In this document: piece by piece, positions 1 through 64,000 of the stretch
Position numbering within the stretch: position 1 is the stretch's first letter
Layout: each line of letters begins with the position of its first letter
Source of the DNA: Psammoneis japonica
Taxonomy: Eukaryota
Direction: 5' to 3'
DNA: 64,000 nt
Assembly: GCA_008632985.1 (NCBI GenBank)
Contig: QPGO01000017.1
Coordinates: forward strand, 186,001 to 250,000
Position numbers and translations under genes: made by a program
Notes under the pieces: model-generated
Told to the model about the DNA's origin: nothing
The model's database searches: none
Seen by the model: the letters and a program-made list of their open reading frames with translations, nothing else

Positions 1-1200
1 TGCAAGGCATTGAGCATCAGTTGCATCATCTTTGCTTGCCCTGTTGCTCATGTCATCTTTCCCATTGTTGTTCCCCTCCTTCATGCCAGCCTTTGAGCTC
101 CCCTTTGGCAGCTCCATTTTGTTGTTGCTTGTGCACAGATCAACAAAATTGAGAGACAGTTCTGTTTCGTCATCACTTGCACACACACCAGCAATTTTTT
201 TGTCGTTGCTTGCACATGGATCAGCGCAACCACAAGGATTTTTTGGAACTTTGGGAACACATGCTGCAACATCATCATGCAAAGCCCGAGGAATCATGCG
301 CTCTGGTGCAGGATGTTTTTGCAGGGCTGCATGATGAAGCTTCAATTCAATGGCACCAGCCAGTTGAGGTCTCATCCTCTTGGCTTCCCCTTTGCAACAT
401 GGCAGTGTGTTTCTTCTGCCAATCATTGTCCTTGCCTTTGGGCAATGCTTCAATTGGAAATGGGTCAGAGAATGCTGTCAATTGCTTTCCACTGCAACTT
501 GTTGCATTGCCATGTTCCGCTTTTCTGCAAAATGCTTGTGAGCTTGTTGCACATGTTCCTCATCATCCAGACGGCGCAAAACTTCTTGTTCATGTGTGTT
601 GCCCTCTATTGGCACTGTCCTGTGTTCCTTGTCACTTGTGCATTGACCATCATCAGGCTGCTGCATTTCATTGAAGCTTGCGCACGGGCAGATCAACAAA
701 ATTGCGAGGATTTTTTGGAACTTCGGCAGCACATGCTGCAACGTGCTGCAGCAGCGTCGTCACACAAAACCAAAGGAATCATGTGCTCTGTGCAGGATGT
801 TTCTGCAGGGCTGTGCAATGAAGTTTCAATTCAATGGCCTGCCAAATGAGGTCATTCTCTTGGTTTTCTCTTTGCAACATGACAGCGTGTTTCTTCAGCC
901 GTTCATTGTTCTTGCCTTCAGGCAATGCTTCAATTGGCAATGGGTGGGAGAGAATGCTGTCGATTGCTCTCCACTGCAACTTGTTGCATTGCCACATTCC
1001 ACTTTTCTGCAAAATCCTTGTGAGCTTGTTGCATGCATCCCTTGTTGCCCAGATGATGCAAAACCTCTTGTTCACGTGTGTCATTCTCCACCGGCATGAC
1101 AAGCAGGAGATGGGATGAAGGTGCTGCAAGGAGCTGCACTTGCACTCGTGCATTGAGCAACACAGCAACAACAACAGCAAGCGTTGTTCGCGTTGGAGTT
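1..1200. repeat. TpA/CpG-depleted degenerate repeat domain containing two diverged tandem ~470-bp units (probably an element relic)
   Basis: Units ~218-606 and ~691-1090 align throughout (e.g. ggattttttggaact...cacatgctgcaac; ccactgcaacttgttgcattgcca; ttttctgcaaaat..ttgtgagcttgttgca). Only about one TA dinucleotide seen in 1.2 kb. Overlapping Tyr-poor, Cys/His/Gln-rich ORFs in all frames. Family not identified. Confidence 0.75.
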
Positions 1201-21493: not shown

Positions 21494-22268
21494 CCTCTAC
21501 AAGTACCAGATAGTTCAATGGCAGCGCCCTTGAATGATACTTCCACCCACGCTGGACCCCAACCAGCGCCTGAAAGATTCACAATTCGAAATAAAATGGG
21601 ATGAAATAGCGAGTCTCGCTGATCCCACGCTCCTCCAGTTCTCGTGGGAGTTGTGGATGAATGAGAAAATTTCAATTCCACACTTTTTGATGATTTGCTG
21701 TCGATCTTGTGAGCGACTCTGGCGGGACTGCCGGCGCGGGCAACCTTATCCTAGATTTCAGTACCACGTCTTACGTGAAGATCGTCTCGTGTAAAGAGTG
21801 TCGTTGGAAGTCGGAGACATTTTTCGATAATTTCAAACATAATCGCATATTTTAATAAGCCTATACAGATTCTAATTCTATACTACATTCAATATGGACT
21901 TAACTTCGATAGTACATCTATGACATATTAATTTCTGATTGTAAATCATAATGTGGGATATCGATTTCCTACGGGAGTCGATGGTATGAGTATATTAAGA
22001 TTGGGGTAATAACAAAAAAATTAACATGCGTAATCAAATATTCGGCCGTTTATCTCAGATCTTATTTGCGCGCTCCCATGACCTGTTGCGTATAGTGCAG
22101 TACAAGTCTTACATACACCCTCCCTTCGTATGTAAAAGTCGTTGGAAAAGTCGTTATTGCGCGGGTCTTGTGAGAACGCGATCTGCCACCACAAAACAAG
22201 ACTCACACCCGCCAACGTGGTTCGAGAAGCGCAACAGAAAAAGACAAACGAACGCCGCAGGACTAACA

Positions 22269-22414
22269 TTTGCATGCAAGAGAGGCGACGAGACACGCAG
22301 GACTTGGTTCAATCGCCAACGGCAACATCGTATGTGTAACGTTTGCATGCAAGAGAGGCGACGAGACACGCAGGACTTGGTTCAATCGCCAACGGCAACA
22401 TCGTATGTGTAACG
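22269..22414. repeat. Perfect 73-bp tandem duplication just upstream of GPN3
   Basis: tttgcatgcaagagaggcg...tcgtatgtgtaacg present twice head-to-tail (22269-22341, 22342-22414). Confidence 0.95.
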
Positions 22415-22438: not shown

Positions 22439-23448
22439 ATGGGACGATGTGCAATTCAAATCGTAATGGTATGTACTGCGGTATGTTTCATGTTTCAGAC
22501 ATACTAAAGCGATAACGCAATCGTTGACTGACCGAGTCTCACACTTGTCACTAGGGACCGGCAGGTTCGGGTAAAAGTACCTATTGCCATGCTATACAAC
22601 AGCACTGTGCGACTCTAACCGGTTCAAGGCGTCGAAGAGTACATGTTGCAAACTTGGATCCAGCAGCCGAGACCTTTCGGTATGATGTGTCCTTTGATGT
22701 GCGAGACTTGATTTCCGTTGAGGATGTCATGGAAGAGCTCGGACTCGGGCCGAATGGATCACTGATTTATTGCATGGAATATCTTCTAGAGCACTTGGAG
22801 TGGCTACAGGATCATTTAGACGATTTCTTGGATGATGAGTACCTCATTCTGGACTGCCCAGGGCAGTTAGAGCTCTACACTCACGTTCCAGTTATGAAGC
22901 GAATATTAGATCGCCTAAGAATGTGGGGCTTTGAATCAAGCATGGTCAGCGTCTTTGTTGTCGACTCAACCTTTGTGTGCGACACGTCCAAGTTCATATC
23001 TGGAAGTCTGCTCTCTTTGAGTGCAATGATTGCCATGGAGCTGCCGCACGTGAACTTGTTATCCAAATGTGATCTTGTAGATGAGGACGCAATTGAGAAC
23101 ATGCTCAATGTCGAGAGCGCAACGCAATTGTGGGATATGGAAGAGTATCGACAGCAGATTGTACACGGCGAAGAAAGTTCCGAGACTGATACCCAGCAAC
23201 CGGAGGATCGGGAACGGAGACGTTTGATTGAACAGCAACGACGAAAAAGAACCAAACTGACAGAGGCGATTTGTTCCCTGTTAGATGACTACACTATGGT
23301 TTCGTTCCTACCTCTCAATATCACCAAGGAAGACAGCATTGATCATGTGCTGACGACAGTCGACCACACTATTCAGTATGGAGAGGACCTAGATGTCCGA
23401 GAAGCAGAAGGTGGCGACGAGTTTGGATCGGCAGAAGCATTAGGCTAA
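22439..23448 (+). CDS. GPN3: GPN-loop GTPase 3
   Basis: MGRCAIQIVM|intron ~22469-22554|GPAGSGKSTYC, NLDPAAE, GLGPNGSLIYCMEYL, DCPGQLELYTH, ELPHVNLLSKCDL, IQYGED. Confidence 0.93.
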
Positions 23449-23489
23449 ACTTAGAGAAGTCACACATCTTCCTCTTTTTCAAAATTGAG

Positions 23490-23616
23490 CGTTCGAATGA
23501 TGATTCTCAGGAGCTCCTGGTCGCTGAGTATTCAGAGTCTGCCGTCACGATCCCACTCTCTTACCCTCAAGTGAAAGTAACTTTCTTTATTAATGATGCC
23601 GTCGGGGCTTGACCTT
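23490..23616 (-). pseudogene. Degenerate copy of the 3' end of the aspartic protease gene
   Basis: Aligns to 32231-32423 (gaatga, ctggtc.ctgagt, cttaccctcaa, aaagtaa, tctttattaat.atgccgt, gggcttgacctt) with an internal deletion of roughly 70 nt. Confidence 0.85.
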
Positions 23617-24799
23617 GCTTGCTTCGCTTCGTGCCAAGTTTTTTGCGCCAGTTGGTGGTTCGGGTTCGCACAATCCTTGTCAACGGACATTAGGCCCCAC
23701 TTATCGAAGGCCTAGTCTCAGTGTGACTCTCAGCAGAAAAAAGGTGATGCTGCTACTTTTCTCTCTAGACAGACTCATCAGAAAAAGATCACACTGAAGC
23801 AAGCGCATGATGTTTGCACATGCGGTGCCGCAGTCCATCTCCATGTGGCGAGTGCGACTAGAAAAGTCGGACAGTGCCACAGTTAGTCGTCACAATGGTT
23901 TTCGAGCACATTGCAACTTGCTCTCAAGATTGATGCAGACTGCCACCCACCAGTGCTGTCTGGATAACCGTTGTTTGGTCAATCAAGCAGGCCACCATCT
24001 CAAAATAAAGAGTGGCTCCTCGTGGTGCCAGCAGCCACAGCACGCTGAAAAAAGCACCCCACAAAATCAAAGGACTGTCAAATGGACAAGAAGGCACAAT
24101 TGTCAGTTTTGATTACTTTTTTCCAGTGTCTGGACAGACATGAAAAGCTCCACAGCTTGACTTGAGAATTGTTTTAAACTGGTGGTTTTTGCCAACAATC
24201 AGCCAGAGGAGAGACTACTCACTGCACTTGTGAAAGTTGCACCATGTCTCAGCAAAACAAGTGTCTCAAGAAGGGGGAGCCACCACCATCTTTGAAACCC
24301 CAAATTTCTGCCAAGTGGGTGTGCGTCATGCAGAGAGAATGCATTTGCACGAAACTGGTCTCTGCCAGTCGCTCATTGAGAGAGGGCCATTTGAGAACAT
24401 TGAGCCTTGTGCACAGCAGCAAAACAAAACAAAAAGAACAAAGCTGCTGCTGTTTTGAGGATGGCATGCCGTTGCCTTCTCAAAGGCCTCAACAACTCTT
24501 CTTGCTTTCACAACTCTTTCATGCACCTGTTGTTTTACACACATTTTCTCTCTTGCCAGCAACACTTTTGTGTCCTCTCTCTGGAAGGAACAAACTCCTG
24601 ATCACACAAGCAATCATTCATCATTGGCCAAAGCCAAGAGTGAGACTTTCATGGGTGGCTTCATCAGTGGTCATCTGCTGTTGATGATGCTGTCGCAGGA
24701 GCTGTTGCATTAAAAAGATTCAATGTCAGGAGAGCAGACACTTGACTGAAGTGACCAGATCCCAGGTTGTTGAGCTGTTGCATCACACTCTGGTGCATT

Positions 24800-24849
24800 C
24801 TCTGTCTCTCTGTCTCTCTCTGTCACTGGCTTCCCACCCATTTGTGGTC

Positions 24850-24880
<31 letters not shown>

Positions 24881-24900
24881 TCTCTCTCTCTTTCTCTTTG
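24800..24900. repeat. (CT)n microsatellite / polypyrimidine tract
   Basis: tctctctctc runs, longest at 24851-24872. Confidence 0.9.
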
Positions 24901-26299
24901 TTTCTCAGCCCCACCCATGATGTTTGTGATGCAAGAAGTCAGCTCCAAACACAAAAAGAGAGTTGAGTGGCTGCAGATGGCTTTTAGAATTCAAAATTGC
25001 ACACTGCTCTGCACACTTGATGGACAATTTGCTGAGAGCCAAGAGGGTCAAAGTTTTTCCTCTTCAATCTTTGGCTTGGTGCCCATTTTTTCTCCAACAA
25101 TTCCTTGGTGGTGCTGGGGACCTCCTGCATGCTCCATGTGCCAACTCTCAAAAAGACCATCAGAAAACCAAACTGGCCAGCAAAACATTGCCACATTTTG
25201 GGTGCTCACTTGACATCTGGCATCTCTCAGCAGATCTCCCACCCTTGCTTGTTTGGGAGCTCTGCATTTGGAGGCATGAGGCACCCATTGCAAAAAACTC
25301 TAGACCAAAATCACAAACACACAATGAGCAGTGCTCTTTCCAACTGCCATGTTGCACACAAACTTCTGCACCTTGGCTCACACATCTGGAAGCTTTTCAC
25401 ACAACCAGCCATGACAAATGACCCAGGTGACACTGCCACAAAAATTGTTTTAACAAATCTGCCTTCTTGAACCTTGGCACACAAGGAGAGGAGTTGTCAT
25501 TGTCATCTTGCTGTGCACCAGCCACAGAGAGTGAAAAAACCATGCAGAGCAAGTCAGCTCCATTTTGCAAGTGCTTGTCCTGTCAAGCACTCAGAGCTTT
25601 TGTGCACTCTGTTGGGCTTGAGAGGACAATCAGAGGAGCACAAGTGGTCCAAAAAACTGTGTTTTTCCCTGTCACTGGTGGCATGTGTTTCCCCTTTCCT
25701 CTTTCCCACATGATGCTGTGGGGTGCAACAGACCTCCCAAGTTGGGAGTGAGAATGATGATGCACAATGACTGTTTTGCTGTTGCATGCCAAACAAACAA
25801 ACTTCACTGATGTCATTGCCACTGTTGCTCCCTTGTGGCAACAACCAAACAGCCAGGATTTTGGGAGAGTCAAGCCTCCCTGTGGACAGATGACAGGTTT
25901 GATGGAGCCAGTCTTTGTTGTTGAGCCAAATCAAGCAGTGCTTCTTGCATCCCAAAAACAGTGGCACACTTCTTCAACCACCCAAGAAAGATCCAGCAGC
26001 AGTCAGAAAAGAAGGGCTCACACTGCTGAGCCTGAGAGACACAAAAATGTCTGAATCTGAAAGCTGCTGCCAAGGCAACACTGGGCAAGAACATGAAATA
26101 AACAAGATGGACAGGTTTAAAAAAAAAACAGGTCTGAAATTGAAGTGCCATTGCTTCATTGCCAGCAGCACTGATGCTGGCTGACCCACACTTCCAGCAC
26201 ATGTGACAAGTGTGGCAGAAGGAGACACAAAGGCTGGCTGGGATGGGTGTTGCCTCCCAGCAATGCCCCACCAAAGCAGCTGGCAATGGAGTGGGCACC

Positions 26300-29200
26300 A
26301 TGAAGTGCAGTGCACTTTGTTGGTTTCTCAGTGCTTTCAATCTTGGTTTTAACATGGCGACCCAATTCTGAATTGCGGAGGGCCATGCACAATGTGTTCT
26401 TCCAGTGTGTTCATCAGAACTTCTCTGTCTTTGGCGTGGCAATCCTGGCATTTGTCATGTGTGGTGTTGAGTTTGGCTTCAGCCTGTTGGCATTGGGAAG
26501 ATTTGCAAGAATCTGCTGCATCATGTCCATGAAACACAGTGTTGTGCTCTCCTCCCAGAGTTCCCACCATGACCTCCACATGTGTGCAATCCGATCTGAA
26601 CAGCCCACACAGGGGGTGGTTGATTTTCTTTCAGGCACTGTTCCAGCAGGCCTGACTCATGCATCTGCATCTCTTGAAAGGTGTTTCACAAAGCAGAGAA
26701 ATGCCCATTGAGAACACTTGTCTCCATCTGATGTTGATCTGTGCTGCTCTCCACAGTGGATGAAGGAAGAGGAAGGGGCATGCATTGGTCTTGCACACCA
26801 TCTTGTTTCAAAGCCATGCCTCCAGAGACAACAAAAGGAAATCTTGCAATGGGAGCATGGTGTCTGCCTTGTTGTTCAGACCATGGAGAAAGGTTTGTCT
26901 CCAGGCTTTGTTGTTTTGACAGCAAAGGATGTGGTCCTTGTCCTCCATGGGATGCTCACATGCAAGGCAAAAATGTGGTTGTGCTGGGTTTTGTCAGTTG
27001 GCAATTTCATTTGGAGAGGGACAAGCAATTTTCATGAGTGAGCTTGATGGTGGACAACATGCTTCTTAGAGAATCTGCAGACAAGAGGGGATGAGTGGTC
27101 CAACTGATCTTGTCTGTGACTGATTTGTCCCAGCTGTTTTGTTCACGAGTGTGTTCCATGAGGAGCAGGGGCTGCAGCTGTGCACCGCATGGACACTTTT
27201 GGTCCAGCAGCAGTGACCATTCCATCCAGAAGGCTGACATGCACTTGGCAATGGGGGAATGGCATTGCTTGGGTTGTGTTGGATGAGCATTGACCTGCCA
27301 ATTTGTCAGCTTGCACATTGACCCAAGCATTCAGAGGAAGAGTTGATGTGGGAACTTGACAATCTTGATGGCCTTTAACCCACTGGGTGACAGGTGCTTG
27401 GCCCAGGGAGGAACTGTCAACTGAAAATGCAATCTTGGTGGAGGTCTGATGGATTTTGTTGACAACATCCCAGTCAGACAACAAGACATTGGCACCATGA
27501 TGCTGGAGATTGAAATCTTTCTCTGGGCTGGCTTGGTCAAGAGTTTTGACAGATGGTCTTGAGACTGACATGCAACTGAGAATGTTTGCCAGAGCACAGT
27601 TGTCACACCAGTCATCCAAGCCCTTGCAGTGTGTCACTTGACAGAATTCAAGGACCCAAGGTGCAAAATGCAAATGGGACAGCACTCCATGGGCTTCCAG
27701 TGATGAAGGGAACCATCCAAAGAGAGGCCCATCACAATCAAAAAAGGGAACTCCTTCAATCAAAAGACAAAGTCCACCCAAAAGTTGCACTTTGAAGGTG
27801 AATGACCCATCACTCCTGGATGCAGTGGGAGAGGACACCAGGTGTCCAACAAGATCATGAAGGGACATGTGAAACACAAGATCAAGGAACAGATTCTTGG
27901 ATTTGTCCCACAGTGGAAGAGCCTGCAGGCATTCACAAAACAAGTCAGGAAGAGGTGAGTGGGTTTCCAAAGAGAGCTGCAATTGGTGGCGGGATTGAAG
28001 CTGCTGACATTTGTCATCAAAGGAAGCAAAGAGCTCAGCTGGAGAGGAGTCTTCAGAAGGGGGTGGAACAGCCTCCATTTCATGCAGAGTCAATGCTTTC
28101 TCATTGTGGGCCAAAAAGAAGTCAAGACCCACTGGGGATCAAACACATGGGAGAAATGCACCAAGGCTTGCATTTGCATCTCTCAGAGGGGGAAACCAAA
28201 CAATCTCCCCCAAAGGAGCCCACAGTTTAGCAGCAGATTTGGGGCGGCACAGTGATTTGCATGAACAGATCCAGGAGCACTGTGCAAGGTGGCAAGGCCT
28301 CTCTTGTTCCATGTTGATGAGAGTGCTGACACTGCTCAGGCAAGCAGGATCCCCATGCATCTTGGACTCATCCAGCTCCAGTCCACAGGTGAGAGTGATC
28401 TCTGAAACAGTGAAAACCTTGAGGCACAATCTGCAACAGTTGATCTGGCCAGCAGATTTCCAAGGAAGAAAGTTGGACAGATTCCAGGGCCACATCCATT
28501 GAGTGTTGGTTGTTGTTTTTGGAGAAAAAGAACACTCCATCATCTGACCAGACTGTGTTTCCTCCAATCCTTTGCAAGAAGGAGCAAACTGACATGAACC
28601 ACAAGGACTTGCAGCGAGGGTGTGAGGAGTGGTCATGTCAGTTAAAAAACTGACACCCACTCCCAAGTGCAAAACTGAGTCAAAGCAATGTGAACTGCCA
28701 CATGTGGTTGATCACCAAAGACAAAAAAGTGGCACACACCTTGTGCATGATGCAACAGTTGTTGAAGCTGTGCAACACCTTGTTTGACATCTGACAATCA
28801 GAAGCTGCCACCTCCAAGCAACTGTGGGGACCACACAAAATAAGTCATTTGGTGTTCCCCTGTTGCAACCACATTTTGCATGAGTCACACAAGCACGGCC
28901 TTTTGTTGAATCTTGAGGAGGTTTTTGGCAGTGAAGTGAGAGTTGGCCAGGACAAAGGTTGCCAATGGCAAATGACATGCATGGTGACAGCACACCAAGA
29001 TTTAGTGCAATCAAGAGGAACCAAGCAAATGAAGAGAGCTTTGCCATCACTCTTTTTCTTGCTTTTGACACTTTGAATTGCTGCTTCAGCATGCCAGCAG
29101 GGGAAGAGTGAGGGTCTTGTGAGGAGCATGGGCTGACAATTGAGTGCTGCACCTGGAGGCAGTTCAGTTTGATGGACAGGTTTTGTTCATGCTTGGCCAC
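26300..29200 (-). mobile_element. 5'-truncated, degenerate non-LTR retrotransposon (Ambal-like LINE with RNase H)
   Basis: Ordered fragments across frames: HKTL..P.G..KQQF (end of RT), AKCGCNRGTP..GP..LGG, WFMSVCSFL, QINCCRLCLKVFTVSEI...G, QERP...W, PLGE.W, RNase H motifs SDGS / GP...SS.EAHG / WCDN / SDWDV / WVKGHQD / N..AD.LA, and C-terminal WELWE.HN..FHG.D. Confidence 0.75.
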
Positions 29201-29299
29201 AACTCTGGTGGCAACAAGGAATCAAAAAATGCACTTGCCAACAGCAGCATCAAGCCACAACTTGAGCAAGATCAGCAATGGATCTTTGGACACTCAGGC

Positions 29300-31000
29300 A
29301 ACCTTTGAGGGCCTTGCACTCCCTGGAGCAATGAGCTGGGATGTGTTGTCAGCTTCAAAGGTGCACGCTCCTGTTCTGACAGGGTCATGGTGTCCTCATT
29401 GCTTTGTGGCCTGCTGCTTGTGAGACTGCTGCCTGTCAAGTGGTTGACACACATGGTGCCTTGGAATCTGTGCTCTGAGCAAGCAAGTGAACACACCTCA
29501 CCCTGCACAAAAAGGTGTGACATTTGTCTTGCCACCAGCACAAGTCTCTTTGATGTCAAGGCATTCTTGGTGTCATTCATCCACAGGTTTGCAGCAGAGT
29601 TGTGCAAAATTGTTGCTCAGCACCAGGCAGCAAGAAGAAGAGCCACAGGTGAGGGACACACACAACAAGATCTAAGAAGCACTCTCTGCTGGCACCTCAA
29701 AAGGACTCTGCTTTTGTCTTGACCCCTGCAGAGAAGTCAGCATGATCATGCTGCCTTGATGAGAAGTTGTGGTCACAAACCATCATGGCTTGTGAAACTG
29801 CAAACAGCAGCTCTCCACAGGGGCCCCACTTCTTCCAGGAGTGGCAATGTGCTGCCAGTGCAACAAAATCTCCACCACAATGGCAAAAAGAGCAGTGTGC
29901 TTTTGCCCATCATCAGATGTCCAATGCCTCCCATCTGTGGGCAGCATCTCCTTTTGTGGAAGAAACTGCAGATCCTCATGATGATCTGGCTGACTTTGCT
30001 TTTGCTTCTGACAACTGCTTGTGTGGCACATTCATGGTGGAGAGAACAGCAAATGTGTGTGCAGTCAAGGCACACACACAGTTTTTCTTGTGGCTGAGCC
30101 AGTGGTTGGTGCAGCCACCTGGAGCACCAAAGAAAAGTCTGCCAAAGAGAGTCAAAGTGTGCTCCACTTTTTGTCTTTGAGGCCTTCTGCAAGGCAGCAA
30201 AGACAGGGAAAGGTGCAGCAACTGCCCCTCAAAAGACTGAGATGGCTGTCAAAAAGAAGCAACAATGCATCAAAACAACACAGAATGTCTCAAGTGCAGT
30301 GGAAGCTCTCACAGACCTGAGGCTCAACCAAGTGGATGACAGTGACTCTGGACACTGGGAATGATCTCAAGAAGAAGAGCATCTTCCTTGTGCTCAGCCC
30401 TGACCTGAGCTGGCACACACCCCACCCAAACTTGCTCCTTCTGTTTTCACATGCACTGCTGCAGTGTGCATGCTTTGTGACTGTGCACTTGTTCTGTGTG
30501 GCTGCAAGGGTTGTGGCTTGGCATGACAATTTCTGTGCACAATGTTCAGACTCACACCCACAAAATTTGGGAGATTTGCTTGTGGTTGTTGGCAGACACA
30601 CTGTGTGTTGTTGAAGAACAAACCAAATTTTTCTCAAGTGCAGCAACTCTTGATGCAAACTGCACACAAAGAATCACACATGTGCAGTCATTTTGACCAA
30701 GGCAAGACTCTGTGCAAACAAAGCACAAAAATGATTTTTGCATCTTGTCAAACATGTCACAGCAGATTTTTTGCTGATGATCACATCCCAATGCTGGGTG
30801 TTCTTTGCATGTGCATTGAGCATGCTGCAGTTGCCACACAAGATTGTTTGCCTCCCTTTTCTTGCCTGCTGGCCATTCTTCTGAAGAGCAAAAGAAAAAC
30901 AAAAGAGGTGACATTGGCGGGTCAGTCACTTCACTGTGGGTGGGTGTGGTCTGGTTGTTGAGAACACCTTTTTGCTGTTTTTTCATCTGCTCACAGCAGG
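29300..31000 (-). mobile_element. Possible degenerate hAT-type transposase relic
   Basis: Weak motifs in the expected order: BED-finger-like GNCSMLNAHAKNTQH (~30800), TRWxS-like CTNHWLS (~30100), dimerisation-like W...LVLVARQM...SLACSEHRF (~29480). Heavily mutated. Confidence 0.3.
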
Positions 31001-31666
31001 GGTGGCTTGTCGAACAGGAGCACCACAAAAATTGTGCAGGCATTGAAGCAATGCAGCAAATCAAGAGGGTGGTCGGGCACCACCAGAGAACTTGCAGCTG
31101 CCACTGAACATGCCACCCCCTGCTGGTTTGCTCTGTTGCCATGTCAGCCAACCCAAAGCAGCAACAAAAACACTGGGCACAACTCGAACAAAAAGGGCAG
31201 GCCGGCACTGCTGCGCCAGTGGTGCAACAGACACCCAGCTCCACAACCACTGGGTGCTTGGGGATCACCACAAGGTTGTTTCACCACCAACCATCAAGGC
31301 TTGCAATGACTTTTCACCACTGCTGGTGCCAAGGATCCATGCAGCAGCCAAGAGACCTCATGGGAGGTCAGCTCCAACCAAGTGGCAAAAAAATGTGTTC
31401 CACAGCTGTTCCCAAGAGTCAAAAGAGGACTTTGGATGTTGCTGTGTGTCCAAACATTGCACACTCCAGGTGACTGCACTTGAACCTTGTGCAAGGCATC
31501 AACAAACAAGGTGAGACAATGCCAAGTTGTTGCTTTGGCTCTGGAAAAGTGAGTTGTCGTCTCCGACAATGACTCCTCCCACCACACCATCCACAGGAGG
31601 GTGGGTGCACACTGGGAGTGAGGGCTGTTCTCCCATCAGAATCACCATTGCATCAATGCAGCAGCA

Positions 31667-32190
31667 ATGTGTGTGGATTTGAGTCCAGCATGGCATGGTG
31701 AGCATCATTGCCATCAACTCCACTTTTGTGCATTGCATGTCAAAGCTCGCATCTGGGAGTCTGCTCTCCTTGAGCACCATGATTGTCACCACAGAGCCAA
31801 CAAATGTGATCCTGCTTGTGAAAATGCCACTGAAAACACACTCAATGTCAAGAGCTCAATGCAATTGTGGAATGTGGAAGAGCATTGGCAGCATCAGATT
31901 GTGCATGGGCATGAAAGTCTCCGCGAGACTTTTGCCCAGCAACCAGTGGTTCAGGAGGAACAGACACATTTGATTGAACAACAATGATGAAAAAGAAGCA
32001 AACTGACCAAGCAACGTGATTTGTTCTTTGTTGGATGGTTTGTTCTCACCTCTCAATGTCACTAAGGAAGACAGCATTGATCATGTGCTGATGACAGTCG
32101 ACCACACTATTCAGTGTGGAGAGGACCTAGACGTCCGAGAAGCAGAACGCGACGACGAGTCTGGATCGGCAGAAGCACTGGGCTTGACTT
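31667..32190 (+). pseudogene. Degenerate duplicate of the 3' half of GPN3
   Basis: MVSIIAINSTFVHCMSKLASGSLLSLSTMI vs MVSVFVVDSTFVCDTSKFISGSLLSLSAMI; NTLNVKSSMQLWNVEE vs NMLNVESATQLWDMEE; 32049-32145 nearly identical to 23311-23408. Frameshifts and TGA stops. Confidence 0.95.
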
Positions 32191-32240
32191 AATCCTAGAA
32201 ATATGACAAATCTAGGAAAGAAATTTTAATGCTTGAATGA

Positions 32241-33653
32241 TTATCGGGAACTGCTGGTCACTGAGTTTCCACAGTCTGCAGTCGCGATCCCCACTCGCTT
32301 ACCCTCAACGTCAAAGTAAATGTCTTTATTAATCATGCCGTTGGCTCCAATAACCGCACCCTCAGCTTCATCCACGTAAACTCGATTTATTAATTCCTCT
32401 GTACCAGACCAGGGCTTGACCTTACCTGTTTCATCCAGCGGTACTCCTTCCATGAACGACTCTGGGAACAACGTAAAGGGGACTCCTTTGCTTTTGTCGT
32501 TGTTGATTTCATGGCCAAGACCACCGCCAGTCGCGAAACCTCCGCTCGCCAAAACAAAGTTTATTCGGGGCAGCGTGAGGAACTCATCGAATGTGTATAG
32601 TCGCGTGCGCTTCTCGTAGTCCATGCCAGTGACCTGCTTCCAAGCTTTCTTAAAACTGCCCTCGACTGCTTGCGGGAGATAAGTGTCGGTTGTCCCGCTA
32701 TCGAGAATAGTGCCCTTACCACTTGCAAATGCTGTGAGTTCACTAGCAAGCCACCAACTTTGCAAGGAAGCTTCTCGGCATGCCACGCAAACGTGTCCAA
32801 CCCTCACCTCCAATACGGCGACACTATACCAACTCTTGGCGGTCTTCACCAAGGGCGAGAATTTCATTGGTTCCAGATGTCTTGATGTCAGAGCACCACC
32901 GAGTGAAAAATGTCCACCAGCAGCTGTGAGGCACATGGAAAACGCGTTCCGTGGTATTGATCCCAATTGGTACATAGCTTGGATGACAGACGTGTCATGC
33001 ATTGCCAAACCCAGAATCCCATCAGCATACTGCTTTGTAAATAATCCCGTCTCTTGGGTTTGACATCCAAATGCATATGGGATCGCCATACGCATAAACG
33101 ACTCATAGCTCTCCTCCTCTTCAGGGGATCCAAACCAAACAATGTCCTCGGTTTCATACGCTCGCCACGAAGATCCCTCTGTGTACTTTTGAGACAAGTG
33201 ACATTTGTTGTCACGCGGTGAACAAGTAGCAATGTCTTCCAAGAAACATTTCCCGCACTCTGGTATTACGTCGGTAGTGCTCACGGCTGGATCAAAGAAA
33301 CTCGATGTGTGCTTCCCACACTGTCGGCAGGGTCGACACGGAAATGCCATGAGTCGAGAGCCCGTGTCAACAATGAGGGCCTGTCTTTGCGGTGGTGATC
33401 CCACGTATACGTAAACATGGTGAGTCCCTGAAGTTGCATGAAGCGGAACTGTCAAGGAAGCCTCTTGTACTTCAAAGGTTTCCGATTCACCAGTCTGTGA
33501 ACGAAGAGTCTCAGTGTCAATGGCGAGCTCCGAGTCACCACCCCGAAGACTCGCAAGCCGTCGTCCGGTTGTAGGTATGACTGCCAATCTCACAACAAGC
33601 CCCGTGCAAATCAGAATCAACAACAAGTCGGTGCGTATTCGAAGCCAACCCAT
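32241..33653 (-). CDS. A1-family aspartic protease (plasmepsin V/APCB1-like), secreted or ER
   Basis: Signal anchor; catalytic LIVDTGS and ILDSGTT; flap YTEGSSW; FGCQ..ETGLF..QYADGILGL; C-terminal VIGAN...FD...RVGIA.ADC. Confidence 0.93.
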   Translation of the reverse strand: MGWLRIRTDLLLILICTGLVVRLAVIPTTGRRLASLRGGDSELAIDTETLRSQTGESETFEVQEASLTVPLHATSGTHHVYVYVGSPPQRQALIVDTGSRLMAFPCRPCRQCGKHTSSFFDPAVSTTDVIPECGKCFLEDIATCSPRDNKCHLSQKYTEGSSWRAYETEDIVWFGSPEEEESYESFMRMAIPYAFGCQTQETGLFTKQYADGILGLAMHDTSVIQAMYQLGSIPRNAFSMCLTAAGGHFSLGGALTSRHLEPMKFSPLVKTAKSWYSVAVLEVRVGHVCVACREASLQSWWLASELTAFASGKGTILDSGTTDTYLPQAVEGSFKKAWKQVTGMDYEKRTRLYTFDEFLTLPRINFVLASGGFATGGGLGHEINNDKSKGVPFTLFPESFMEGVPLDETGKVKPWSGTEELINRVYVDEAEGAVIGANGMINKDIYFDVEGKRVGIATADCGNSVTSSSR

Positions 33654-34063
33654 GTTGATTTTCTTCTTGGGTGTCAGATTGGCAAAGTTCGCAATCTTAC
33701 TTGTTAGACGTCATCGACGAGCGCCACGACCACGACGGCGGCGACCACCATTTTCTGTTTGATATTTTTGATTTTTTTGTGCCGTGATCCGATTTCCAGA
33801 TTGGTGACCGAACGATATATTAGATAAATATGTATGAATATTAATTACATTATTTTAATAAATAAGGGTGATGTCACAACGGAAAAAGCATTCATTCGCA
33901 ATGTCCTCCGTGTTTTGCCGCTCGGCGGACGCAGCACGCATGGCGGCGGCAAGAAGAGAGCGCAGTTTTTTCCTTCAGGCGTGAACTGTTGAAAGCTTTT
34001 GATAGGTCGCTTCGCCCCTCTTGCTCATCCTCATGCTTATTTTTCAATTTGGAGTTGGAAAGA

Positions 34064-43976: not shown

Positions 43977-44414
43977 GTAAACACTCAAAACTAAGGGAGG
44001 TAGGCTATGTACTGTACCGTTGGTTTGGGGCACTCGAGCTATACTGTAGGAAAATCTTTTCGATTGTGCTTGGCTTTGGTATGCATGTTTCACACTTTAA
44101 AGTTTCGATAGAACGCCTTTGCAGAACCGCTTTGTGTTTGTTCAAGTCTACTACGAGGTTTCTACCGTACCGTTCTCGTCAAACATATTCCGGTTTGATC
44201 CCTACATGTACGGTATAAGGATCGATTAGAAGACCCGGAGGATATGGAATGTGAAGACATCATGGTCTGTTTTGTCAGGGTAGACCTGCGTTTGGTGCGG
44301 CAGCACAGACAGCCACCAAAGTCCACTCAACTTTTATCATCATTGGTGTTGGTGGGCTCACAATCCGTAGGTACCGTAGGCTCTAGATATACAGGTCCCG
44401 GCAGCTATTAGGGT

Positions 44415-44830
44415 AGAGATGATCTACCGCAGTACTTTTAGCTACGATAGTCTACCGGGACCGTGCGTTTCTTGCTACGTACAAAATAGAAAAGACCATA
44501 CCGGTAGCATGCGTATATCTCTAAACTATCTATGGGTACGAGTAAGTGAGTAGTACCGTAGAGAGAAGTGCAGCTAGGTCCCTACCATAGCAAGGATTCG
44601 GTCCCTCTACGTCGTAAATGCCGTGGTTGAAGAGATGATCTACCACAGTACTTCTAGCTAGTCTACCGGGACCGTGCTTTTCTTGCTACGTACAAACTCT
44701 AGAAAAGACCATGTCGCTAGCATGGTAAATCTCTAGTAGACTATCTATGGGTACGAGTAGAGTAGTACCGTAGAGAACTGTACAGCCAGGTCCCTACCAT
44801 AGCAAGGACTTGGTCCCTCTACATCGTAAA
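44415..44830. repeat. Diverged ~215-bp tandem duplication, non-coding, TpA-rich
   Basis: agagatgatctacc...aggtccctaccatagcaagga...ggtccctctac.tcgtaaa at 44415-44618 and 44632-44830. Confidence 0.9.
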
Positions 44831-45531
44831 GTTAGTAGAGGGCCCTCTCGCTCTACCTACACAGTAGAAGTAATTACACATGCTCGCTCGTGTTGACAAG
44901 AGCAAGAAATACAGTACAGTATGAAAATTGTGAGCAAAACTGCCTGTCCAACGAACGACAAATAGAAGTATATATAAATATATATGTGCATTGATATTCC
45001 TTTGCAAAATCTTCTGTTTTTATAAAGTTATCATCTATATATACGTGGAAAACTAAATAGTTTGCTACAAAATGAATATGTGTATACTTAGTACAATCGC
45101 TACGCTTCGAATTCGGCAGGCAGGATACGATCTCTCTCTATCTTCTATCAATCAAAGTACAGTACCAGGCCACGCGTAGAAATCACGTGGCGGTACAACT
45201 GCCCCCCCCCGCCCGCGCTTCATTCGGTCACACAATTTTTTCATGCTCGTGAGTTTCACGTTTTGCTTTTTGTCATATCGTCGCAACATTGTCCCCTACG
45301 TTCCCTAGTTTGCGCGTTACCCAACCACTATATCCTTGTTGAAAAGGTAGTCAGTTGTAAGTGAGTTTCGCTTTGCCATGTAATTTGTTTGACGGATGAT
45401 ACATTCAGGTCGAGTCGTTCTCTCCTTTTTTGTGGGTATACTGCGCTCCTCGTACACTTCTACGTAGTTTCTTCAACTCACAACTCACGTGCATTTCGCC
45501 CGCATGCACAGCTCGATTAACTATTTCGACA

Positions 45532-60559: not shown

Positions 60560-63500
60560 ACTGCCAACAACCTGATGGAGGGGGGGAGGGGGCAAAAGAA
60601 ACACACACAACATCATCATCACACATCGCCACACCTGCATGGCGAAAATTTGCGCAATTGTTGCACTGCATCAATGTGCTCTCATTGCCCAGCTCAGCAC
60701 ATGGGCGGCACAGCACCTCAAAGTTTGGGCACCTTGCTGCTCCTTCTGCACACAGCCAAGCAAGCAAGCTCTTTTCCTGAGCCCAAAAGTCAGAGCTCGT
60801 GCACCGCGACACTGAGCTTCCCTGGTCCTCCCAGAGCCGCCAGAGCTGAGCTTTTTTCTCAGACAACACTTGAAAAGCACAGCTCACTACCTGCAGCATT
60901 CCAAAAAGATGTTGTGCCATTTCAGCAATTTTCTGTGAGCTGGCTGCTTCAACAAAAAGAAGCGGTGCCTGCTGGCTTTAAGACCCCCCGCCCCGCCAAA
61001 CAAAATGTCGTTGGTTTTGTCAGCACCAGCAAAGATGCACTCAGCCCAAAGCTGCAAAAAATGAGAGTTGATTGAGTCATCTTTGAAAACTCAAGAGACC
61101 ACACATTTAAGAGCGAAAGCACCAGTTCTGTCAGCAACGTTTTGAATCAAATGACTGAGTGCACACGACCACAGCTTGCCAAGAGCCACCCCTCGCACAA
61201 TTGCTGGTGCAGACAGAGGATTGGAGAAAAAGAGGAAGACAAAGAAGCACAAAGTTTGTGAGGGAGCAGGTGCAAGCAGTGTGCAACAAAAACTGAGTTT
61301 CTCTTTGTGCTGGCAACCTTCAGTGATGGCCAGCAGCCAGCTCGCAAATGCAAGAGCTCACATGAGCAAACTGGCCAGTGGCAACAAGAGGAGAAATCCA
61401 GATGAAAACATCTCAGCAAAGGGGCAAGAGTGCAACTCAAGCAGAAGGAGCTTTGTGGGGCAATGTTTGGTCAGCTGCAAAAATGTGTGAGGCAGCTGTG
61501 CAGTGCTGAAGGGGGGGATGTTGAGCCGGCAAGTCAATGTCACCAAAAGGGAGTCCCACAAGGTTTCCTGTGCTGCTTGGCACACTTGCCTTGGCAAATT
61601 GTGAGGGCCGTGGGTTGCCAAAAGTTGTCAGTGAAAACTTCAAACTCTCAATGCAACAGGTGCCTGGCAACGCCAAATGACAAACCAAACATTTCACTCT
61701 CCAAAGAGTGAGATGAAACTGAGAAGTGAGAGATCCAACTTTGCTCACAATGAGTTGCCGAAAATCCATGTCAGGAGCCAAAGCATTGTTTCTTCACATG
61801 CCCAGGCCCTTTGCATTTCCCATGATCTGGATGTTCCAACAGAAAACAATGCACAAACTCAAAATTTGGGGGATGACTTCAGCCAGCTGCCAGCTGAAAA
61901 AAGTCTTCTGCTCATCAGTGCATTTGGGGGTTTTGTCAGTGCTTTGTTGTGTGCAAAAAAAGACATCTGGGCTGGTCTGTCCAGCATTTGCTGAATCTGT
62001 CCAAAACCCCCAAACATGCTGACTGACTGAGACTCTTTGTGCAAATTCTGTGCAAGATTTTTCAGCCAGCAGCTGGCTGGAGATGCTCCCCAGAGATTGC
62101 TCACCCTTTTCTTTGGCAGCACATCAGCTGGAAGAAGGGAGAGTGTTTCAGCCATTGGCTGGCTCAAATGTCTTTTCTTCATTTTGCTTTTGAGCCATGA
62201 ATGTGCTGGCTGTGTTGATGGGAGATTTTCTTTGATGTTCAACAAAGCTCAAAACATTTGTTTTTCTGTGCAAAAAAGGGCATGCGTGTGCCACTTGAGT
62301 CTGGAGCAAGTCCTCTGAGAGGGAAAAAGAGCACAGCTTTGTGGGGGGTGGAACACTTCTGCTCATTTGGCCCCAATCTCATTTCACTGAAAACACTGTG
62401 AAAGACTGCTTGCCTCTTCCATCTCATCAAAATGGCAACACAGCTGCACTTGAAATGGCCAACAGGTCTGCTTGCCAATCTTGCTGGACTTCCCTGTCTG
62501 CTTGTGTTTGTTTTCAAATGCATGGCTTGATGTCACATGTCAAGGTGCAACTCAGATTTCCCCTCAAGATTTGGCACAAGCTGCCACATTGGATCGATGC
62601 AAAACAATGCAATGGGTTGTCCAAAGCCAACCATCTGTTGCCCAAATTTGTCATGATTGTCAAAAAAGGCAGCAAAGGCAGGAATGTCTGAATGAGCACA
62701 AGCAACAATGGTTGCACAGCTGGCAATGCAGTGAATGCCAAAGTGCTGGTCACCAACCAACACTCTGGCATTGTGGTCTTTTGGCAAAGATTCAAGGTGC
62801 TGTGAGAGAGGCTCCAACCTTCATTTTAAGCAAACACACTGGCCCACATGCATGCCTTTGCTTTGGTGCTCATTGCTTTTGGTTGGCCAGCCAAAGACAC
62901 AGCAATCTTCAGCACAATGATGCCAATGCCAGCAGCAGCAACAAATGCCTCAAGAGCATCCAAATGGTCAACACATGTTAAAAACACCCAGTGAAATGCT
63001 CCATCCACAACTGCACGCAGTTCATTTGCAGTGCCAGGTGGACAAGAGGAGTGACCATCATTGACAACAAGGTCTTGATGCACAGACTTGAGGACTGAGA
63101 TGTCTCATGCTTTTTTTCATGGCTGAACTTGTGCCAACCATTTCTTGGAGCATCTTTGGTGGCAAGCAACTTGGAGCAGTTCATGAAGAAACGCTCTTGC
63201 AGGAAAAGCTGGCTGGCACATTTCCATCATAGACTCGCTGCTCTGAGATCTGGAACAAGTGAGTGGTTGTGACAGCACCTTCACAAGCTCTGATGTTTCT
63301 TCAGTCAAGTCAACACTTCTCAGTGCAGCAAAAGCATTTCATTGATTTCTTTCATGCCAAAGCAACTCTGAGGCTTGCAGCAAGGAAATCTTGCTCAGCA
63401 CTGGTGCCTCTCCGAGCCTGTCAACAAAAAAGCTGCAAGCTCTTCTCTGTAATTTCATTGCCTCAGCATGATGCACAAACCACCAAGTTGCAGAATTTGT

Positions 63501-64000
63501 CACCACTTCCAATCAATGCTAAAATGAGGTCAAAAGAATCCTTGCCCATCACTGCACCTCTCTGGGGAAATAAACCAAGCCTGATTTAAAGTGCCGCCAC
63601 ACCTTTGCCCAGCAACGCTGGTGCTGGCCAACCCCCCCCACACCTCCAGCACACCCTGCAAGGGATGAGGCACCTGAGCCATTGTCTCCCAGGGGAGACG
63701 CCCAATTGAAATGGCTGGAAATGGCGTGTTTGCCATGTGCCAACAACTTCTTTGCTTCCTTCAAACTTTGCTGCAGGTGGGGCCAAACCATGGAAATCCA
63801 GCTCTGGATGCAAGTGGTGGAGAATGTCTGATGTTCTTCTGCCAAATCTGGCAAAACTCCTCAATCTTTGGCCAAGTGCTCTTGTCGCTCATTGCAAATT
63901 GCCATCAATTCATCTTTGGCCATGCGCCCATGAGATGACTTGCAAGAATCTACACTGTGGCCATGCATGAGCTGATTGTGTTTTCTCCTCCCACAATTCC
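60560..64000. repeat. TpA/CpG-depleted degenerate domain (probable element relic, runs off the window)
   Basis: Same composition as 24100-32050: TA nearly absent, CG fading with distance from the edge, many short Tyr-free ORFs. Element family not identified. Confidence 0.7.

Follow-up and report, generated by a model that had tools for sequence, protein, structure and literature searches.

Probable TpA-specific hypermutation alongside CpG decay in intergenic blocks of the diatom Psammoneis japonica

What removes both TpA and CpG from discrete blocks of a diatom genome? We analysed a window of 64,000 nucleotides from Psammoneis japonica (assembly GCA_008632985.1, contig QPGO01000017.1, positions 186,001 to 250,000), in which three domains are depleted in both dinucleotides (Table 1). 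With expected counts taken from base composition, the pooled domains contain 30 TA against 845 expected and 85 CG against 726, while TG and CA are present at about 1.8 times expectation. This confirms the depleted blocks reported in a preliminary description of the sequence, which was essentially right on their coordinates and on a count of about a dozen TA. In domain 2, observed/expected counts are 18/535 for TA (o/e 0.03), 28/459 for CG (0.06), 881/484 for TG (1.82) and 930/507 for CA (1.83). Domain 1 contains TA at 1/80 and CG at 24/68 (o/e 0.35), with TG at 1.70 and CA at 2.16, and domain 3 contains TA at 11/230 (0.05) and CG at 33/199 (0.17), with TG at 1.83 and CA at 1.67. The remaining 49.5 kb of the window gives ratios of 0.61 for TA, 1.01 for CG, 1.12 for TG and 1.15 for CA. 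Sliding a 1-kb frame along the sequence gives a TA o/e of 0.00-0.10 within the domains and 0.36-1.33 elsewhere.

Table 1. Positions of the depleted domains and associated features within the window.
Feature	Position	Strand	Remarks
Domain 1	1..1200	.	Cut by window start; TA gone, CG loss partial
Two diverged tandem copies in domain 1 (235-599, 707-1081)	235..1081	+	80% identical
Left duplication copy, functional 3' end of GPN-loop GTPase gene	22922..23605	+	Normal composition, ancestral-like state
Domain 2	24100..32050	.	Intergenic block of 7950 b almost without TA and CG
Decayed LINE-type (non-LTR) retrotransposon remnant	26385..28986	-	5'-truncated or 5'-eroded; tblastn with relatives
331-aa open frame, RNase-H-like region of LINE polyprotein, without Tyr	27146..28138	-	Relatives, conserved blocks
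Right copy of ~680-b duplication, pseudo-copy of GPN-loop GTPase 3' end	31670..32344	+	Straddles domain 2 border
Aspartyl-protease gene, right neighbour bounding domain 2	32244..33710	-	Pfam TAXi_N 1.2e-22, Asp 5e-15
Domain 3	60560..64000	.	Cut by window end; TA and CG depleted

If TA and CG are turned into TG/CA, the total of pyrimidine-purine steps should stay the same, and in domain 2 it roughly does (1857 observed, 1985 expected). The right edge of domain 2 falls between 32015 and 32063, while its left edge is gradual, at about 23900-24700. Domain 1 ends near 1200; in domain 3 the TA edge lies at ~60560 and CG declines more gradually. TG and CA in the window number 879 and 929 (runs-test z -1.1). 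The surviving TA lie in TTAA context at 12/28, compared with 66/1985 in normal DNA (p 9e-11), a surplus that could be due in part to TA having formed anew and not to its protection.

No Pfam families were found across most of the domain DNA. Within domain 2, tblastn with 12 full-length relatives matched their residues ~1044-1891 (of ~1930) to the LINE remnant, whose 3' part coincides with a multi-copy stretch at 26137-27537. A Pfam scan of 10 relatives gave Exo_endo_phos in 2, RVT_1 in 2, a weak RNase_H in 1, zf-RVT in 1 and nothing in 4. For the 331-aa frame, 52 relatives were found with E<=1e-3, the best at 1.1e-14, and the blocks SDGS ... VKGHQD ... DAD.LAG are visible as conserved in the alignments. 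In composition it has Y at 0/331, with 4 R, 14 C and 19 H; the first 12 relatives contain 2.6-4.7% Tyr. At conserved-Tyr columns the residue is kept in 0/4, the remnant reading C, H, L and T, and EAYG of the relatives appears as EAHG. A transposon origin is thereby demonstrated for only ~2.6 of the ~12.6 kb of domain DNA. Calling these blocks repeat domains is accurate only in part: by depth domain 2 is single-copy (read-derived contigs at ~63-68, compared with 59-73 in the flanks), and it includes the LINE remnant and some multi-copy pieces.

The direction of change can be read from a duplication that crosses the domain 2 border. The left copy belongs to a GPN-loop GTPase gene that has Pfam ATP_bind_1 at 6.5e-73 over 22555-23445, a spliced run X2 contig over 22323-23455 and its best named relative in Ditylum (73%). 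The aspartyl-protease gene on the other side of the block is likewise spanned by a run X2 contig (32210-33756). The two duplication copies are 73% identical. Inside the domain, the right copy keeps 0/8 TA and 1/20 CG of the left copy; the 8 TA read TG at 4, CA at 3 and CT at 1, and the 20 CG read TG at 9, CA at 7 and something else at 3. Summed, these conversions amount to 13 TG and 10 CA. Beyond the border, 8/12 TA and 7/13 CG are kept, and TG/CA is found at 3/12 TA and 5/13 CG, which may represent a shift of the edge or a contribution of ordinary decay. Polarised dinucleotide sites from the window itself number only 28. Of the 89 substitutions that separate the paralogues inside the domain, 59 fall outside a TA or CG context, and the block is simply old and diverged as well. 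The host-gene fragment is converted up to a border of ~50 b and the functional paralogue 8 kb away is untouched, which argues that targeting is by place and not by homology or sequence origin. Domain 1 demonstrates conversion in a similar manner. Its tandem copies differ most often by CA in one and TG in the other (11/23 adjacent double differences), transitions make up 58/68 single differences, and CG is set against TG/CA at 13 sites. With the LINE remnant and the LINE copies described below, the paralogue pair and the tandem copies bear out the preliminary proposal of a domain-confined, polarised conversion of both TA and CG to TG/CA, and they indicate that the depletion is caused by mutation and not by intrinsic composition.

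A larger substitution spectrum was obtained from environmental contigs that belong to a different diatom lineage. Among 57 metagenome loci with LINE relatives, whole-locus TA o/e was below 0.2 in 5 and a 1-kb window fell below 0.15 in 8; in two loci, L052 and L012, the depletion edges fall inside the contig. One TA-depleted contig bears a diatom-specific gene with 61% identity to Seminavis. In 6 affected loci, A>G changes were observed after T at 95/358 (26.5%), after A at 41/990 (4.1%), after C at 60/1587 (3.8%) and after G at 31/1175 (2.6%), demonstrating the specificity for TpA. Affected copies had converted 23/33, 16/34, 16/34, 12/31, and 10/19 and 14/28 TA sites, the last two counts belonging to one element represented by two loci, while other copies with similar neutral divergence had converted 0/34, 1/23 and 2/34. 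The process is thus on or off between sister copies. At 16/34 TA sites one copy reads TG and another CA, which implies independent hits, and all conversions together give 44 TG and 43 CA, demonstrating symmetry between the two strands. Action at TTA/TAA/TTAA was weaker, with 22/61 sites converted compared with 69/110 VTAB sites (p 0.0013). Fisher tests on these copies overstate independence, because the copies are related by descent: L027 and L049 represent a single element, and L012 and L024 are close to each other. Like neighbouring events numbered 49/78 (within-lineage permutation p 0.07), weakly suggesting strand-coordinated patches, which are typical of single-strand deaminases.

The TA process can be told apart from CpG decay. 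In domain 1 TA is gone and CG stays at o/e 0.35, and conversion of TA and of CG across the LINE copies is not correlated (Spearman 0.26, p 0.42), with 0-2 of 34 TA converted in copies that had 16-39% of their CG converted. The second mutator postulated in the preliminary description is supported by both observations. Dead, at least partly transposon-derived intergenic blocks have probably been hit in place by CpG decay and by an independent TpA hypermutation, that is, by two context-specific transition processes that would both end at TG/CA. One would be ordinary CpG decay, CG to TG/CA, as expected where 5-methylcytosine is deaminated in diatom repeats that carry CpG methylation. The other would be a TpA-specific A:T to G:C hypermutation, giving TA to TG on one strand and TA to CA on the other. 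It may be triggered where chromatin is silent or methylated. A plausible chemistry is that an enzyme deaminates the adenine of 5'-TpA-3' in DNA to hypoxanthine, which is read as G, an assignment that falls somewhat short of probable.

The statement that no such system had been described is now outdated. Mettrop et al. (2026 preprint, bioRxiv 10.64898/2026.01.13.699255) report that silent viruses integrated in the genome of Bigelowiella natans undergo hypermutation from TpA to TpG/CpA. Two regions of integrated viral DNA there account for 231/302 new mutations in mutation-accumulation lines, all of them at TpA, and the authors propose an ADAT2-like enzyme. The spectrum is identical, with TpA alone changing to TpG or CpA by strand; in both cases the change stays within certain single-copy regions of foreign origin, and both are on/off, between lines in B. 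natans and between copies here. The hosts differ, a chlorarachniophyte (rhizarian) there and a diatom (stramenopile) here, as do the targets, a giant-virus/virophage insert there and a LINE-containing intergenic block with a captured host-gene fragment here. The degree differs as well, with TpA at Rho 0.45 in the B. natans NCLDV region and saturation here (TA o/e 0.01-0.05). Near-complete CpG loss co-occurs here, whereas 'CpG' appears 0 times in the preprint main text, in which neither the weaker action at TTA/TAA/TTAA nor a ~50 b border in duplicated host sequence was found. New mutations were directly observed in B. natans, while the diatom process is inferred from fixed differences.

The main alternative chemistry places the modification on the thymine of TpA and not on the adenine: a TET/JBP-type dioxygenase would oxidise T (5-methyluracil) to 5hmU/5fU in silent DNA, and 5fU mispairs with G, giving T to C. 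The 5mC of CpG and the T of TpA would in that case both be 5-methylpyrimidines at self-complementary pyrimidine-purine steps. Both losses have the same geometry, a transition of the 5' pyrimidine in a palindromic YpR step, and the balance of TG and CA in the LINE copies is consistent with modification of a palindromic site on one strand or the other. TpA is favoured by base J in kinetoplastid telomeres and by 5hmU in dinoflagellates, and 5-formyluracil is reportedly mutagenic, causing T to C. The uncorrelated TA and CG losses between copies speak against one enzyme for both, and the 15 papers found to pair 'diatom' with '5-hydroxymethyluracil' all concern, by their titles, dinoflagellates. We consider thymine oxidation unlikely, although the present data do not distinguish T-side from A-side chemistry. 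Error-prone repair, in which 5mC-derived T:G mismatches would draw in mismatch repair together with a polymerase of the Pol-eta type that makes WA to WG patch errors, was an option of the preliminary description. It would explain why both losses occupy the same domains of the window and why TA and CG o/e correlate over the 57 environmental loci (Spearman +0.73). However, A>G after A is not above that after C and is far below that after T, the domains show no shortage of AA (o/e 1.18-1.36), and the independence of the two conversions within one LINE family and the third of expected CG retained in domain 1 also oppose it; we regard this reading as highly improbable.

An artefact, with TA and CG really present in heavily modified DNA and mis-called in sequencing or polishing, is more improbable still. 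Run X1 contigs cover domain 2 in 4 long pieces, three without any difference and one with 1, at a flank-like word depth of ~63; 0-1 differences per 2-7 kb piece are unlike noisy reads. Agreement with the assembly leaves the sequence standing, although X1, the sole run with this DNA, has no platform on record and may be the assembly's own source, which keeps the check at the window from being independent. Independent support is given by related elements, not by the window locus. The signature recurs in other assemblies, under three distinct record prefixes. Moreover, the domain differs from its paralogue by indels and by substitutions outside TA/CG, and the remnant protein has matching amino-acid shifts. 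A composition poor in TA and CG from the start, as by selection against UpA/CpG in RNA, has a parallel in RNA viruses and some elements, described as moderately CpG- and UpA-poor. For the segments tested it is refuted, and overall it is barely credible: the LINE relatives are not TA-free, having normal Tyr/Arg content and TA o/e of 0.47-0.59 in intact ~1850-aa copies, the sister copies range from 0/34 to 23/33 TA converted, the host-gene fragment is converted solely in its in-domain part, and the same sites are resolved differently in the domain 1 tandem copies. Equally hard to credit is RNA editing before insertion, in which ADAR-like A to I changes in LINE transcripts would be fixed by reverse transcription. 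ADAR favours sites where the edited A has U on its 5' side (bioRxiv 10.64898/2026.01.13.699255, Discussion), and the L027 + L049 element has 14 TG and 4 CA on the sense strand. Sense-strand-only changes are predicted, yet the LINE copies as a whole are balanced; the host-gene fragment, which is not retroposed, underwent conversion in place to both TG and CA, A>G after A is not elevated, and the B. natans mutations arise in integrated single-copy DNA (bioRxiv 10.64898/2026.01.13.699255).

Ordinary 5mC decay in vertebrates, plants and diatoms resembles the present case in turning CG into TG/CA on both strands, and in repeat-rich unexpressed blocks that lie beside unmethylated gene-rich ones; for Cyclotella cryptica, methylation is described mainly at CpG, in blocks of repeats that reach 30 kb. 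It accounts for the CG half alone, since it cannot yield A:T to G:C, and TA loss here is more complete than CG loss and independent of it. Fungal RIP is likewise a mutational genome defence in which context-specific transitions ruin repeats and leave a dinucleotide footprint. RIP is homology-dependent, hits both duplicate copies and changes C to T mainly at CpA, so that TpA is created. Here TpA is destroyed by an A:T to G:C change, the functional duplicate is unchanged and the border falls within the stretch of homology. The defence polynucleotide deaminases (AID/APOBEC, ADAR, ADAT2) share clustered transitions, a one-base context rule and a target of foreign or repeated nucleic acid. AID/APOBEC act on DNA and ADAR on dsRNA, and ADAT2 is reported to edit DNA. 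APOBEC, however, makes C to T and not A to G, and the ADAR pattern, with 5' U about equal to A and one RNA strand, does not fit these data. The blocks described here are a new, saturated example of TpA hypermutation, in a diatom, in transposon-derived DNA and combined with CpG decay, of a TA-targeted footprint so far reported once, in an unrelated alga, Bigelowiella natans.

Three blocks of the window, located in sliding 1-kb windows, have TA and CG near zero and TG+CA nearly doubled. The sliding windows and dinucleotide tables agree here with the preliminary description, which had reported domains stripped of TA and CG. The remaining twelve dinucleotides have observed/expected (o/e) ratios of 0.71-1.61, with AA in the domains at 1.18-1.36. 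The rest of the window, 49.5 kb, has a TA o/e of 0.61 and a CG o/e of 1.01. Pyrimidine-purine steps across domain 2 add up to about the number expected (1857 observed, 1985 expected), which fits conversion of TA and CG to TG/CA and not avoidance. TA loss can precede CG loss, as in domain 1 and in two of the environmental loci considered below (L054 and L012). The domain sequence is complex and not simple repeat, except for one CT microsatellite. Elsewhere, the sole TA-enriched stretch of the window contains a tandem duplication, and an inverted repeat just left of domain 3, in TA-rich surroundings, may be a small unconverted terminal-inverted-repeat element.

Features of the window and of related environmental loci (TA, CG, TG and CA counts as observed/expected; X1, DNA run; X2, transcriptome-like run)
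Feature	Position	Details
Domain 1	1-1200	TA 1/80, CG 24/68
Domain 2	24100-32050	TA 18/535, CG 28/459, TG 881/484, CA 930/507
Domain 2, left edge	roughly 23900-24700	graded
Domain 2, right edge	within 32015-32063	
Domain 3	60560-64000	TA 11/230, CG 33/199
HCAR-like FrhB N- and C-terminal domains	8417-9262, 9057-9950	overlapping frames
Tandem 78-b unit	22264-22414	98.7% identity; just 5' of the last GTPase exon; X1 contigs end there
GTPase intron	22467-22554	86 b; GT..AG, skipped (spliced out) in X2 contig
Duplication, left copy	22922-23605	functional 3' end of the GPN-loop GTPase, normal composition
Duplication, right copy	31670-32344	pseudo-copy, straddles right border of domain 2; 73% identity to left copy
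CT/CTCTT microsatellite	24795-24907	in domain 2; breakpoint of read-derived contigs
LINE remnant	26385-28986 (-)	residues about 1044-1891 of about 1930
Longest open frame of domain 2	27146-28138 (-)	331 aa
TA-enriched stretch	44000-45500	TA o/e 1.2-1.33
Tandem duplication	44415-44618, 44631-44830	85% identity; within the TA-enriched stretch
Inverted repeat, 129 b	59338-59466, 60213-60341	90% identical, about 750 b between; surroundings TA o/e 0.87-0.90
Environmental LINE frame, L010	2-5560	unbroken, 1853 aa; TA o/e 0.47
Environmental LINE frame, L003	2-5533	unbroken, 1844 aa; TA o/e 0.59
TA-rich stretch, L054	2250-3350	TA o/e 1.2-1.7; adjoins TA-free stretch

Three polarised tests, on a duplicated host-gene fragment, on tandem copies and on a LINE remnant, all point to mutation and not to intrinsic composition. 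The frames flanking the domains belong to ordinary eukaryotic genes (GPN-loop GTPase, aspartyl protease, HIRA, condensin Cnd1, Yju2, cyclin and HCAR-like FrhB; the split FrhB frames are presumably one gene with an intron or frame change). The best named relatives of the GTPase are all from diatoms (Ditylum at 73%; Skeletonema, Cyclotella, Nitzschia and Phaeodactylum at about 62%), which places the organism among diatoms, and the collection searched gave no near-identical protein. Comparing the window with itself matched the 3' end of this gene to a second copy, so that the domain border runs through a homologous stretch while the functional paralogue is unaltered. Within the domain, the 8 TA sites of the left copy read TG (4), CA (3) or CT (1) in the right copy, and the 20 CG sites read TG (9), CA (7), another dinucleotide (3) or CG (1). 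The 294 b of the right copy beyond the border kept TA at 8 of 12 sites and CG at 7 of 13. Conversion of this host-gene fragment was therefore determined by its location.

The same direct duplication, about 680 b long, brackets the whole 8-kb insert. It comprises the junction where the GPN-loop GTPase and aspartyl-protease genes meet 3' end to 3' end, and in each duplicate one gene end is functional and the other is a pseudo-end in decay. The arrangement resembles a target duplication of great length, or else a tandem duplication filled later by insertions.

The tandem copies in domain 1 differ mainly by transitions (58 of 68 single differences). CA in one copy against TG in the other is the commonest mismatch, accounting for 11 of 23 adjacent double differences, which implies that the same ancestral sites were resolved independently. 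At 13 further sites one copy has CG and the other TG or CA.

The longest open frame of domain 2 barely exceeds the chance length when TGA is the only stop (about 0.1 expected), and was taken as real because of its homologues: 52 relatives reach E<=1e-3, with a best value of 1.1e-14. These are LINE-type polyproteins; among 10 that were scanned, Pfam families were Exo_endo_phos (2), RVT_1 (2), weak RNase_H (1) and zf-RVT (1), with nothing in 4. All relatives looked up (10 clusters) are metagenome-derived. A tblastn search with 12 LINE polyproteins delimited the remnant and gave no match in the domains beyond it. No Pfam family passed the threshold in the remnant, nor could APE and RT parts of its own be located; its assignment as a LINE (non-LTR) element comes through homology to APE endonuclease/reverse transcriptase polyproteins. 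Tyr is absent from its 331 residues, among which are 4 Arg, 14 Cys and 19 His; in the first 12 relatives Tyr makes up 2.6-4.7% and Arg 1.6-7.4%. At all 4 columns where Tyr is conserved the remnant has another residue; for example, it reads EAHG where relatives have EAYG. Among the 119 open frames of at least 70 aa in the three domains no Pfam match passed the threshold, and the best sub-threshold matches were at chance level, including a faint SH3_retrovirus at 25036-25467; no family was found either in 12 whole frames whose stops were read as X. LINE homology covers the remnant only; about 10 of the 12.6 kb of domain DNA (domain 1, domain 3, 24100-26100 and 29000-31670) matched neither the LINE polyproteins nor any Pfam family.

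We evaluated whether the sequence is real from assembled reads. The word depth of contigs from the DNA run X1 was about 63-68 across domain 2 vs 59-73 in the flanks. Depth is raised at 24269-24735 and 26137-27537, a sign that these pieces are multi-copy, with diverged relatives elsewhere. X1 covers domain 2 in four long pieces with 0, 0, 0 and 1 differences; this agreement argues against noisy or mis-called reads, with the qualification that X1, from the only study found to contain this DNA, is possibly the assembly's own source and so not independent of it. Inside domain 2 an X1 contig has, at full depth, G for A at 28355 and an extra T behind 28515, which are possible assembly or strain differences. 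No run recorded as RNA was found to contain this DNA. Contigs from run X2, which resembles a transcriptome from the same sample, lie on flanking genes only, with none over 23802-32207, although contigs cannot show absence of transcription.

Support independent of the window assembly came from environmental loci. An alignment of the remnant and four relatives was used to retrieve 57 metagenome loci; the window gave no blastn match to them, and the link is at the protein level only. Similarly named records may represent one campaign, and independent sources were counted as record prefixes (three), not loci. TA o/e ranged from 0.09 to 0.89, falling below 0.2 over the whole locus in 5 of 57 and below 0.15 in a 1-kb window in 8 of 57, and its correlation was -0.85 with TG+CA and +0.73 with CG. 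The most extreme 1-kb window had TA at 0.01, CG at 0.23 and TG+CA at 1.92. Several of these contigs have internal edges. In L052, TA of 0.3-0.56 and CG of about 0.9 drop to 0.00-0.04 and about 0.23 within about 500 b, and in L012 composition is normal again ahead of a 606-aa frame. The named relatives of that frame are all diatoms (Seminavis at 61%, then Nitzschia, Cylindrotheca, Epithemia and Mayamaea), which indicates that the same footprint occurs in another diatom, one related to raphid pennates. Two loci with unbroken LINE frames, L010 and L003, may be intact representatives of the family to which the converted, decayed copies belong. In L054, opposite extremes of TA content occur within 1 kb.

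Twelve of the loci are copies of one LINE family, 85-93% identical, with TA o/e of 0.11-0.45. Taking the majority state of each column as reference, for counting only, gave 34 majority TA and 53 majority CG sites. Conversion of TA to TG/CA was high in six copies (L024 23/33, L048 16/34, L055 16/34, L049 14/28, L012 12/31 and L027 10/19) and low in six (L017 0/34, L044 1/23, L015 2/34, L016 2/15, L011 4/34 and L010 5/34), against background transitions at other A/T sites of 1.8-6.5% in all 12. Counted on both strands of the six affected loci, A>G changes occurred at 95/358 sites after T (26.5%), and at 41/990 after A, 60/1587 after C and 31/1175 after G (2.6-4.1% for non-T). CG was converted at 16-39% in all copies and did not track TA conversion (Spearman 0.26, p 0.42); bases of majority CG carried transitions at 8-17% vs 1-5% at other G/C sites. 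Because L027 and L049, at a neutral distance of 0, amount to a single element, and the closest relative of L024 is L012, the affected copies represent about four independent lineages. By neutral distance these are interspersed with unaffected copies. At 16 of the 34 TA sites one copy has TG and another CA, which requires independent hits.

Products were balanced between strands, with 44 TG vs 43 CA in the sense-oriented loci of the family, and strand runs were absent from domain 2 (879 TG vs 929 CA, z -1.1). Neighbouring events in the family were alike in 49 of 78 cases (p 0.015 vs 0.5; p 0.07 by within-lineage permutation) and strand imbalance between lineages gave p 0.23; strand-coordinated patches of TA events are suggestive only. 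Flanking bases also mattered. Surviving TA in the window domains lies in TTAA in 12/28 cases vs 66/1985 in normal DNA (p 9e-11), and in TTA or TAA in 23/28 vs 678/1985. In the LINE family, VTAB sites were converted at 69/110 vs 22/61 for TTA/TAA/TTAA (p 0.0013, with sites not fully independent).

The preliminary description had proposed a second mutator, targeted to domains and acting at TpA, and this core inference is well supported by the paralogue, tandem-copy and LINE comparisons. Its view that the spectrum was undescribed is outdated, as the same spectrum has been reported in Bigelowiella natans (bioRxiv 10.64898/2026.01.13.699255). That 2026 preprint, on one rhizarian alga, was the one report found in our literature searches on context-specific A:T->G:C nuclear hypermutation. 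In mutation-accumulation lines, Mettrop et al. found 302 new nuclear point mutations, of which 231 lay in two regions of integrated viral DNA, where the rate was about 6e-7 per site per generation; with a single exception these were A->G or T->C, those all on TpA, and the TpA mutations were confined to some lines (bioRxiv 10.64898/2026.01.13.699255). The authors propose an adenosine deaminase, with an ADAT2-like candidate, and the words 'diatom', 'CpG' and 'TTAA' each have 0 occurrences in their main text (bioRxiv 10.64898/2026.01.13.699255). The B. natans system is defined by a transcriptionally silent target and by de novo mutations at about 1e-7 to 1e-6 per site per generation in the integrated DNA, whereas the evidence here consists of fixed differences only. 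Four other hallmarks of TpA hypermutation are found here. The A:T->G:C change is specific to TpA (7/8 TA to TG/CA in-domain, and A>G after T in the LINE family) and on both strands (near-equal TG and CA in the family and domain 2). It falls in delimited, single-copy DNA that is at least partly foreign-derived, with sharp edges, flank-like depth except over sub-stretches, and a LINE remnant inside, and it is not constitutive, sister LINE copies of similar background transition rate (1.8-4.4%) having from 0/34 to 23/33 TA converted. CpG decay is present as well, with CG to TG/CA on both strands and TG/CA excess (16/20 CG in-domain and 13 tandem-copy sites). The footprint is an extreme new case of B. 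natans-type TpA hypermutation, in diatoms, in at least partly transposon-derived intergenic DNA, on top of CpG decay.

Several known processes predict other patterns. Fungal RIP changes C to T at CpA, makes TpA and mutates both copies of a duplication; here TpA is lost, not gained, and the left duplication copy is intact and functional. Pol-eta-type WA->WG synthesis, an option raised in the preliminary description, needs A>G at both TA and AA, and does not fit 41/990 at AA vs 95/358 at TA or the AA o/e of 1.18-1.36. ADAR-type hyperediting via retroposition predicts changes on the transcript strand only, yet the LINE family has 44 TG vs 43 CA, and the host-gene fragment was converted in place with 13 TG vs 10 CA. 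GC-biased gene conversion was rejected, as it would not be specific to TpA and would leave CG in place. For a TpA-specific mutator, the trigger would be silent or methylated chromatin. The chemistry may be adenine deamination at TpA, to which we give nearly an even chance; thymine oxidation at the same dinucleotide would be improbable.

CpG methylation is known in repeats from other diatoms. The Cyclotella cryptica methylome account places methylation chiefly at CpG and in blocks of repeats as long as 30 kb, next to gene-rich blocks that are unmethylated. Mutation accumulation in P. tricornutum shows a GC->AT bias with CG the most mutable context; 'TpA' has 0 occurrences in the available text of that paper, which neither supports nor excludes a TpA process in this species (PMC6604790).

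A mutation bias of GC->AT is near-universal, and A:T->G:C hypermutation goes the opposite way. The saturated footprint, on retrotransposon-derived DNA of two distantly related diatoms, suggests that many ecologically dominant algae have the process, and our results suggest that it acts on transposons besides viruses and is aimed by genomic place, not sequence. Blocks free of TA and CG escape homology-based repeat and gene annotation (0 Pfam matches in 12.6 kb) and skew dinucleotide-based statistics. Handles toward the enzyme are offered by taxa with vs without the footprint, the VTAB flank rule, the border of about 50 b and the on/off sister copies, and a natural TpA-specific DNA adenine editor, if true, would be of interest for base editing. 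We tentatively propose, with confidence somewhat short of even, that a dedicated DNA-editing defence, guided by chromatin, is common to diatoms and chlorarachniophytes. TpA would be erased from silenced invaders by enzymatic A->I conversion (or T-oxidation) with VTAB preference, possibly in strand-wise episodes and switched locus by locus, by a kind of enzyme not yet known on double-stranded eukaryotic DNA; such a defence would be widespread in SAR algae and have gone unnoticed. Together with CpG methylation decay it would bring invaders to an end point lacking both TA and CG, where silenced DNA would have no TAA or TAG stops, no Tyr codons, no TATA-like or AATAAA-like signals and no TA or TTAA transposon targets.
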